From the NCBI RefSeq assembly GCF_003334765.1, contig NZ_QOWT01000081.1: a stretch of 1,231 bases of DNA; one strand, 5' to 3'. This document shows, piece by piece, positions 39 through 1,201 of the stretch (position 1 is the first letter of the stretch; the number at the start of each line of letters is the position of its first letter). The position numbers and the translations under genes are program-made. The notes below the pieces were generated by a model that was given only the letters and a program-made list of their open reading frames with translations, ran no database searches and was not told the DNA's origin. Origin of the DNA: Escherichia coli (GTDB taxonomy: Bacteria > Pseudomonadota > Gammaproteobacteria > Enterobacterales > Enterobacteriaceae).

Positions 39-338
39 ATGACAAAAACAGTATCAACCAGTAAAAAACCCCGTAAACAGCATTCGCCTGAATTTCGCAG
101 TGAAGCCCTGAAGCTTGCTGAACGCATCGGTGTTACTGCCGCAGCCCGTGAACTCAGCCTGTATGAATCACAGCTCTACAACTGGCGCAGTAAACAGCAA
201 AATCAGCAGACGTCTTCTGAACGTGAACTGGAGATGTCTACCGAGATTGCACGTCTCAAACGCCAGCTGGCAGAACGGGATGAAGAGCTGGCTATCCTCC
301 AAAAGGCCGCGACATACTTCGCGAAGCGCCTGAAATGA
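39..338 (+). CDS. insE: IS3 OrfA (InsE): small DNA-binding transposition regulator, 99 aa, with helix-turn-helix N-terminus and leucine-zipper-like C-terminus
   Basis: ATG 39..41 preceded by an SD; TGA stop 336..338. Translation [50 protein letters not shown]... matches IS3 InsE as I recall it. The track ORF starts at GTG 30, but the ATG at 39 with proper SD spacing is the more credible start. HTH-like segment about 96..176; heptad hydrophobic repeat (I70/L77/L84, L73/L87) about 219..320. Confidence 0.92.
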
Positions 339-1201
339 AGTATGTCTTTATTGAAAAACATCAGGCTGAGTTCAGCATCAAAGCAATGTGCCGCGTGCTC
401 CGGGTGGCCCGCAGCGGCTGGTATACGTGGTGTCAGCGGCGGACAAGGATAAGCACGCGTCAGCAGTTCCGCCAACACTGCGACAGCGTTGTCCTCGCGG
501 CTTTTACCCGGTCAAAACAGCGTTACGGTGCCCCACGCCTGACGGATGAACTGCGTGCTCAGGGTTACCCCTTTAACGTAAAAACCGTGGCGGCAAGCCT
601 GCGCCGTCAGGGACTGAGGGCAAAGGCCTCCCGGAAGTTCAGCCCGGTCAGCTACCGCGCACACGGCCTGCCTGTGTCAGAAAATCTGTTGGAGCAGGAT
701 TTTTACGCCAGTGGCCCGAACCAGAAGTGGGCAGGAGACATCACGTACTTACGTACAGATGAAGGCTGGCTGTATCTGGCAGTGGTCATTGACCTGTGGT
801 CACGTGCCGTTATTGGCTGGTCAATGTCGCCACGCATGACGGCGCAACTGGCCTGCGATGCCCTGCAGATGGCGCTGTGGCGGCGTAAGAGGCCCCGGAA
901 CGTTATCGTTCACACGGACCGTGGAGGCCAGTACTGTTCAGCAGATTATCAGGCGCAACTGAAGCGGCATAATCTGCGTGGAAGTATGAGCGCAAAAGGT
1001 TGCTGCTACGATAATGCCTGCGTGGAAAGCTTCTTTCATTCGCTGAAAGTGGAATGTATCCATGGAGAACACTTTATCAGCCGGGAAATAATGCGGGCAA
1101 CGGTGTTTAATTATATCGAATGTGATTACAATCGGTGGCGGCGGCACAGTTGGTGTGGCGGCCTCAGTCCGGAACAATTTGAAAACAAGAACCTCGCTTA
1201 G
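39..1201 (+). CDS. OrfAB fusion transposase (InsEF) made by programmed -1 ribosomal frameshift at 302..305; roughly 385-390 aa
   Basis: The -1 frame is open without stops from the slippery site (302..305) through the orfB ATG at 335 to the stop at 1201, so a -1 slip on the Lys codon AAG (303..305) fuses OrfA residues 1..89 to the full OrfB frame. This is the established expression mechanism for the IS3 family. Confidence 0.8.
302..323 (+). promoter_or_regulatory. Programmed -1 frameshift signal: A-AAG slippery motif (302..305) followed by a GC-rich hairpin (stem 308..312 / 319..323)
   Basis: Zero-frame codons caa-aag (300..305) give the A_AAG motif. Directly downstream, cgcga (308..312) can pair with tcgcg (319..323) around a 6-nt loop, and the following gcgcc (326..330) could add tertiary pairing. 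IS3 frameshifting is known to use an A-AAG motif plus a downstream structured stimulator; I have not folded the complete structure. Confidence 0.7.
335..1201 (+). CDS. insF: IS3 OrfB (InsF): transposase catalytic domain, DDE/RNase H-like integrase fold, 288 aa as an independent frame
   Basis: ORF in the -1 frame relative to orfA; ATG 335..337 overlaps the orfA stop (ATGA); TAG stop 1199..1201. DDE triad at D135 (WAGD, nt 737..739), D195 (HTD, nt 917..919) and E231 (VESFF, nt 1025..1027), with 36 residues between the second D and the E. Sequence matches IS3 InsF by recall. Confidence 0.92.

Follow-up and report, generated by a model that had tools for sequence, protein, structure and literature searches.

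The orfA/orfB junction in the DNA analysed here, a stretch of 1,231 nt that we refer to as the window, is almost certainly the -1 programmed ribosomal frameshift signal of insertion sequence IS3. This signal is an already known and experimentally characterised element, known since 1994, and the window holds the known system itself rather than a relative of it; the initial annotation recognised it correctly in an intact IS3 copy. It is one of the founding bacterial cases of programmed -1 frameshifting and is used as a standard tool in studies of ribosome mechanics. Finding it again has little value as a discovery; its practical value lies in annotation. Our own analysis covers the anatomy of the sequence, its identity with IS3, the co-linearity of the fused protein with the family model, the conservation of the slip site and the covariation of the first stem of the downstream structure.

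An intact IS3 copy and its overlapping genes

Judged by its sequence, the window is identified as Escherichia coli IS3 from nt 28 to nt 1258 of the element. In a megablast search it was found in 4685 of 5426 complete E. coli genomes; copies 100% identical to it at a coverage of at least 80% occur in 3817 of the 5426, and 4083 records from these genomes hold a copy with at least 99% identity. Many complete E. coli genomes match the whole of 1-1231 at 100% nucleotide identity, and the junction region is also 100% identical to that of the IS3 copy of the F plasmid. An alignment to reference IS3 had been proposed as a check on the slip site, which proved to be unchanged, at 100% identity. RefSeq names the matching CDS (window 39-1201) "IS3-like element IS3 family transposase" and gives it as a join of two pieces with the note "programmed frameshift". 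Older records have separate InsE/InsF annotations.

The numbering of the element comes from a genomic copy retrieved with its flanks (L001), since it shows 27 more bases, TGATCTTACCCAGCAATAGTGGACACG, to the left of window position 1. These bases (L001 1474-1500, starting TGATC...) are the tip of the left inverted repeat and are absent from the window, which starts 27 nt inside IS3. An IS3 element is expected to end in imperfect inverted repeats of the form 5'-TG...CA-3'; of these ends the window has the right one in full, as ...GGATCA at 1226-1231, and the left one is seen in the L001 copy. The right inverted repeat (1193-1231) is likewise complete and contains the orfB stop codon TAG (1199-1201). 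The 3 bp flanking the two ends of the L001 copy differ (cac and aaa), hence there is no simple target duplication.

As expected of an IS3 member, orfA and orfB overlap in the window, and orfB lies in the -1 frame with respect to orfA (Table 1). An in-frame GTG at 30 lies upstream of the orfA ATG, and Pfam HTH_Tnp_1 covers residues 12-78 of OrfA, its HTH DNA-binding region; orfB matches HTH_21, rve, rve_2 and rve_3. The codons of orfA run CTC(297) CAA(300) AAG(303) GCC(306) and so on down to CTG AAA TGA(336-338), which bears out the A_AAG reported at 302-305, AAG being a zero-frame codon of orfA. Frameshift signals are expected to carry, in the zero frame of the overlap, a motif of the type Z_ZZN or X_XXZ_ZZN; A_AAG 302-305 has this form and is the sole in-phase AAAG there. 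The other points of anatomy in the initial annotation also held: the motif lies 31 nt upstream of the orfA stop (31 positions from base 305 to base 336), the orfB ATG (335-337) overlaps the orfA TGA (336-338) in an ATGA, and the -1 frame, whose last upstream stop is TGA 281-283, has no stop from 284 onward and hence stays open from the slip site to the orfB ATG. For IS3, the A_AAG tetrad is given in PMC6815119 and PMC4066793, and a review gives the P-site context as C_CA(A) (PMC5009743).

Taken alone, the motif and the open frame are weak evidence, compatible with chance, because both are frequent in shuffles of the 55-nt overlap: the chance of an in-phase A_AAG is 9.8%, and that of 10 stop-free -1 codons is 67%. 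What raises the site above chance is the conserved position of the motif, the significant hairpin downstream and the covarying base pairs, all described below.

Table 1. Coordinates of the genes, the slip site and the RNA structure in the window.
Feature	Position	Strand	Description and basis
orfA	39..338	+	OrfA, 99 aa from ATG 39; ORF list, translation; RefSeq CDS start at 39
orfA/orfB overlap window	284..338	+	-1 frame open from 284 (translation)
Slippery site C_CAA_AAG	299..305	+	Core tetramer A_AAG 302-305; sequence phase, conserved position, literature
5-nt spacer GCCGC	306..310	+	Between motif and structure; PMC4066793, PMC6938710
Stem 1, 5' strand (GACAUACUUC)	311..320	+	Perfect 10-bp complement of 337-346
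Loop 1 (GCGAAGC)	321..327	+	7 nt; follows from the proposed stem assignments
Stem 2, putative 5' strand (GCCUGA)	328..333	+	Inside the stem 1 loop; complement of 361-366
Loop 2	334-336	+	3 nt
ATGA	335..338	+	In loop 2 and the first bases of the stem 1 3' strand
orfB	335..1201	+	288 aa; DDE/integrase-core catalytic region; read from 305 in OrfAB
Stem 1, 3' strand (GAAGUAUGUC)	337..346	+	Complement, fold, covariation
Loop 3	347-360	+	14 nt
Stem 2, probable 3' strand (UCAGGC)	361..366	+	Proposed assignment

Elsewhere in the window, two 91-aa antisense ORFs lie on the minus strand, one opposite the junction region (203-478) and one opposite the 3' part of orfB (938-1213), with no evidence of being genes. 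Two sigma-70-like promoter matches, against 0.6 expected in shuffles, lie within orfB on the plus strand (946-973 and 1063-1092) and face the right end. No terminator-like sites were found in the window.

Reading 39-305 and then 305-1201 yields a 387-aa OrfAB with the junction ...AILQK/GRDILR.... This fusion is an exact match to a public protein, "IS3-like element IS3 family transposase", whose 90% cluster has 2127 members. The database protein fixes the shift at the AAG/AAA codon, because slipping one codon before or after it would yield LPKGRD or LQKARD. Against the NCBIfam model NF033516 (transpos_IS3), the fusion scores 392.7 bits (cutoff 160), and the alignment covers profile positions 1-369 of 369 in a single stretch across the OrfAB junction. 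By Pfam, the OrfA portion of the fusion holds HTH_Tnp_1 and the OrfB portion holds HTH_21, rve and rve_2, so that OrfAB has the N-terminal HTH and the C-terminal DDE/integrase core of an IS3 transposase and matches the family model. In IS elements the transposase activity resides in the fusion, and where it has been examined the level of frameshifting sets the level of transposition (PMC5009743). The classical IS3 mechanism, a -1 programmed frameshift giving OrfAB, had been proposed for this junction from the outset, and it is supported by the identity with IS3, the RefSeq note, the match of the fusion and the published reporters. The copy is intact and presumably able to make OrfAB; its CDS should be annotated as a join at 305/305.

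In the mechanism that we favour, the majority of ribosomes would terminate at UGA 336-338 and produce OrfA, a small HTH protein. A minority would slip back one base with the Lys codon AAG (303-305) in the A site, tRNA-Lys re-pairing with AAA (302-304), and would go on in the orfB frame from GGC 305 to 1201, giving the 387-aa OrfAB transposase (HTH and DDE). A pseudoknot starting 5 nt downstream would have its first pairs at the mRNA entrance while AAG 303-305 occupies the A site, and would slow translocation; we infer that it acts mechanically, resisting unwinding at the entrance during the decoding and translocation of the slippery codon. Sekine, Eisaki & Ohtsubo (1994, J Mol Biol 235:1406) are reportedly the primary source for the A_AAG and pseudoknot signal of IS3. 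The same work and Sekine et al. 1997 are said to have found that some OrfB is made independently from the ATGA by termination-reinitiation, and that OrfA and OrfB inhibit transposition.

For frameshifting at A_AAG, the need for the pseudoknot and the yield of transposase we rely on the literature. E. coli has a single tRNA-Lys, with anticodon UUU, and in reporters A_AAG followed by the IS3 pseudoknot gave 5.6% frameshifting, the highest among 16 tetramers; frameshifting was near background when the pseudoknot was removed, and the deletion of its 3' half served as a 'no-stimulator' construct (PMC4066793). Changing A_AAG to C_AAG provides a non-slippery control, ribosome load modulates the level of IS3 frameshifting, and frameshifting on the IS3 element has been reproduced with pre-made mRNA in a purified translation system (PMC6815119). 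The inhibition of transposition by OrfA and OrfB has been stated for the IS3 subgroup (PMC5771124).

Conservation of the slip site and the downstream structure

A scan for OrfB with one genome per species gave 80 loci with 52-90% OrfB protein identity, and the junction was extracted from each of them. All intact relatives have the slip site in the same position, as C_CAA_AAG or A_AAA_AAG/A. In a first tier, of Enterobacterales with 78-90% OrfB identity, the motif is C_CAA_AAG at the same position and the ATGA overlap is as in IS3. A second tier at about 55-67%, with Halomonas, Thiothrix, Marinobacterium and others, has A_AAA_AAG (or A_AAA_AAA), whose last base falls at the same position, and ATGA or GTGA. 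In a third, Vibrio-like tier at 52-59%, A_AAA_AAG lies 3 nt nearer orfB, the orfA stop is TAG or TAA and comes one codon earlier, and there is no orfB start codon; because of this last point, these relatives would make the OrfB sequence only within the fusion. The [A/G]TGA is kept in 43 of the 44 near and middle-distance relatives. The conserved feature is the slip site, an independent orfB start not being universal.

Several other features of the relatives were noted. The Vibrio-like loci (L041-L058, L072, L076, L080) have a shorter hairpin, CUACUU/AAGUAG, whose 3' strand includes the orfA stop UAG. An SD-like GAGGAG (Glu-Glu codons) is found at the equivalent of window 282-287 in about two thirds of the relatives, and in the second tier it lies 11 nt upstream of the heptamer, which is the spacing of the upstream stimulators of IS911 and dnaX; IS3 itself has GAAGAG at 282-287, without GGAG. 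Some copies have decayed. In that of Edwardsiella ictaluri (L017), ATC stands in place of the orfB ATG and TCA in place of the orfA TGA. A segment of roughly 311-355, pseudoknot included, is lost from L075, a premature stop interrupts L069, and truncation a short way upstream of orfB affects L012, L073 and L033. The flanks of a Citrobacter relative (L002) contain a match to the Hfq-binding sRNA isrA (60 bits) and a tRNA gene (292-420 and 2923-2995), unrelated to the IS.

The sequence published for the stretch that leads into the pseudoknot (...CCUCCA-ZZZN-GCCGC-, then GACAUACUUCGCGAAG...; PMC4066793) corresponds to window 296-326. The IS3 pseudoknot is described as lying 5 nt from the slippery sequence, with two G-C and one A-U as its first three pairs (PMC6938710), and published spacers are 5-8 nt (PMC4066793). 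Stem 1 in the window starts at 311, after a 5-nt spacer, and so falls within the ~5-8 nt after the motif expected for the structure of a frameshift signal. It has 10 bp, of which 4 are G-C, and its first three pairs, G-C, A-U and C-G, agree with PMC6938710. The hairpin 311-346 folds with -12.5 kcal/mol (z = -3.8 against dinucleotide shuffles). In an ungapped alignment (A1) of 44 distinct sequences from the first two tiers, 97.7% of the cells of stem 1 are standard pairs, and both sides have changed at 5 of the 10 pairs; for instance, the pair 312-345 is A-U in 27 sequences against 16 with G-C, and for 314-343 the counts are 28 (A-U) and 15 (G-C). When the partner strand was slid by 1-3 columns as a control, pairing fell to 34-47%. 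The relatives form about three clades, and the compensatory changes therefore amount to few independent events; the covariation signal of stem 1 is clean despite this.

As published, the pseudoknot forms its second stem with the loop of its first (PMC6938710). We propose an H-type pseudoknot made of stem 1 (311-320/337-346) and a stem 2 of 6 bp whose exact pairs are most likely 328-333/361-366. The loop core GCCUG is retained in 39 of the 44 relatives, and in 36 of these 39 a search with each sequence's own core recovered a complement, CAGGC, CGGGC, UGGGC or CAGGU, at 361-365. This complement occurs in codon phases 0, 1 and 2, encoding Gln-Ala, Arg-Ala, Trp-Ala, Arg-Gln, Ser-Gly or Thr-Gly, and the first tier has a non-synonymous series CAG > CGG > UGG through which pairing is preserved by G-U. 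Since the complement is kept across codon phases with differing residues, an RNA constraint accounts for the pattern and protein coding does not. Pairing of stem 2 in register is 76.9% over the 44 relatives, low because the complement of the second tier sits 1-3 nt away; the z-scores of individual duplexes are modest (-0.2 to -3), and 5 relatives have an altered loop core without a clear compensating partner. The two stems here have 16 bp, against 19 bp for the joined stems in PMC6938710; either that construct was engineered, or stem 2 as drawn here is incomplete. Altogether, the comparative data are modest independent support for the pseudoknot.

Other partners for the loop and other folds were considered. 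UUCAG at 371-375 could also pair with the loop, and is inseparable from conserved Phe-Ser codons. A duplex search of the loop against 347-400 pointed, in several relatives, to 391-400 (CCGGGUGCU) as a partner; this candidate pairs weakly in IS3 itself, which has CGC instead of CGG, and we rejected it as a GC-rich coincidence. A nested alternative fold of 306-370 (-19.9 kcal/mol) is also conceivable; it holds the stem 2 pairs extended by 334-340/346-352, and for this extending helix, which we set aside, the relatives show no compensatory change. The minimum free energy fold of 300-420 has z = -1.25, and its long-range helix 305-310/414-419 was also set aside, as 305-310 is the spacer and would be inside the ribosome.

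The functional RNA signal spans about 299-366, with the orfA stop and the orfB start inside the structure. The boundary at 338 drawn by the initial annotation is too short by ~28 nt, and the stimulator that it named, a short GC-rich hairpin within 300-338, was not confirmed in that form. Small GC-rich inverted repeats are indeed present there, CGCGA/UCGCG at 308-312/319-323 and GCG-AAG-CGC at 321-329, but the pseudoknot is better supported as the stimulator and we regard that role for either repeat as very improbable. Folding 306-338 alone does return a hairpin of -7.7 kcal/mol, and 308-312/319-323 is 90.5% paired in the relatives with 7 double-change cells; yet of the two structures obtained when the folding check was made, 311-346 was significant (z = -3.8) and the hairpin within 306-338 was not (z = -1.2 against shuffles). 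It begins 2 nt after the motif, inside the mRNA channel of the ribosome with AAG in the A site, whereas the literature puts the start of the pseudoknot at 311; the pairs in it that never vary come from the G-C of three Ala codons (GCN), and it excludes stem 1, which is stronger and covaries better. No covariation was seen for the mini-hairpin 321-329, whose third pair is disrupted in 20 of the 44 relatives. Besides, a truncation comparable to an end at 338 did not keep wild-type frameshifting (PMC4066793). The pairing and double changes of the 308-323 repeat may be a by-product of the Ala codons or a competing fold.

A simpler stimulator would be stem 1 alone (311-346), a stem-loop like that of dnaX, the pairing of its loop with downstream sequence not being real. 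The strong support for stem 1 by itself goes in this direction, as do the shortness of stem 2, its in-register pairing and duplex z-scores, and the absence of its complement from some relatives. We nevertheless consider this quite unlikely, in view of three papers in which the IS3 stimulator is a pseudoknot whose second stem involves the loop (PMC4066793, PMC6815119, PMC6938710), of the loss of stimulation in the construct deleted for the 3' half (PMC4066793) and of the CAGGC complement retained in three codon phases.

Other conceivable routes to OrfB and a possible tuning of the signal

If no recoding took place, OrfA and OrfB would be separate proteins coupled by termination-reinitiation at the ATGA, and OrfB alone would be the transposase. 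The ATGA is present, its [A/G]TGA form is conserved in near and middle-distance relatives, and older records annotate InsE and InsF separately. Against this, the Vibrio-like tier keeps a slippery heptamer and a hairpin without an orfB start codon, NF033516 is a fused protein with which the junction is co-linear, RefSeq annotates a programmed frameshift, and it is the fusion that carries transposase activity (PMC5009743). Coupling and frameshifting are moreover compatible, and OrfB is probably made too; as a replacement for frameshifting, coupling is extremely improbable. That RNA polymerase, and not the ribosome, changes the frame by transcriptional realignment on the A run is scarcely credible. 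The site is an A run, but just AAAA (301-304), far from a long homopolymer: productive transcriptional slippage is known from much longer runs, of about 9 or more. Some IS elements do use slippage of this kind (PMC5009743, PMC6211511), but the effect in IS3 depends on downstream RNA structure and on a tRNA-specific hierarchy of tetramers (PMC4066793), and it is seen on pre-made mRNA in a purified translation system (PMC6815119). Ribosomal frameshifting on A_AAG remains the best explanation by far.

A broader reading joins several observations. The competing folds (308-312/319-323 versus stem 1), the loss of the SD-like GGAG and the change of the heptamer from A_AAA_AAG to C_CAA_AAG in the enterobacterial lineage could together reflect an evolved down-tuning of frameshifting, and hence of transposition, in IS3 proper, and the fact that gammaproteobacterial relatives keep the stem 2 complement whatever its codon phase could mark a wider RNA family, uncatalogued because Rfam has no model for the IS3 pseudoknot. 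We offer this combined reading as speculative and, as it stands, unlikely.

Comparison with known frameshift signals

The motif, the GCCGC spacer and the structure start (GACAUACUUC) of the window are those printed for IS3 in PMC4066793, and nothing in the signal differs; with respect to the whole element, the window is without the first 27 nt of the left end. IS911, another member of the IS3 family, fuses OrfA and OrfB into OrfAB by a -1 shift on a Lys codon, as IS3 does. Its signal consists of an A_AAA_AAG heptamer, an upstream SD-like GGAG and a stem-loop with a three-way junction, whereas IS3 has the tetramer in a C_CAA_AAG context and a pseudoknot instead of a branched hairpin, and the upstream SD-like element is degenerate (GAAGAG) in this copy. 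The middle-distance relatives of IS3 have the IS911-like heptamer A_AAA_AAG at the same position.

The ALIL pseudoknot (Rfam RF01497), found in IS3411 and about 27 other IS3-family elements, is like that of IS3 in that the apical loop of the first hairpin pairs downstream. The partner in ALIL is an internal loop, carried by a second stem-loop that lies 44-104 nt further downstream (PMC5009743), whereas the partner proposed for IS3 lies 14 nt after stem 1 (H-type). We rejected membership of the window in RF01497, the match having 10.2 bits against a gathering threshold of 50, an E of 8.9 and an alignment from which the first stem is deleted. This insignificant match was all that Rfam returned for the window at a permissive threshold, no family reaching its threshold, and at the gathering threshold no frameshift element, ALIL included, was found in 20 relatives.

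The dnaX gene of E. coli shares with IS3 a -1 shift on a motif containing A_AAG, the use of tRNA-Lys(UUU) and a structure downstream. It differs in its heptamer A_AAA_AAG, its simple stem-loop, its upstream SD-like element and an efficiency much higher than that of IS3, and ribosome load acts on the two signals in opposite directions (PMC6815119).
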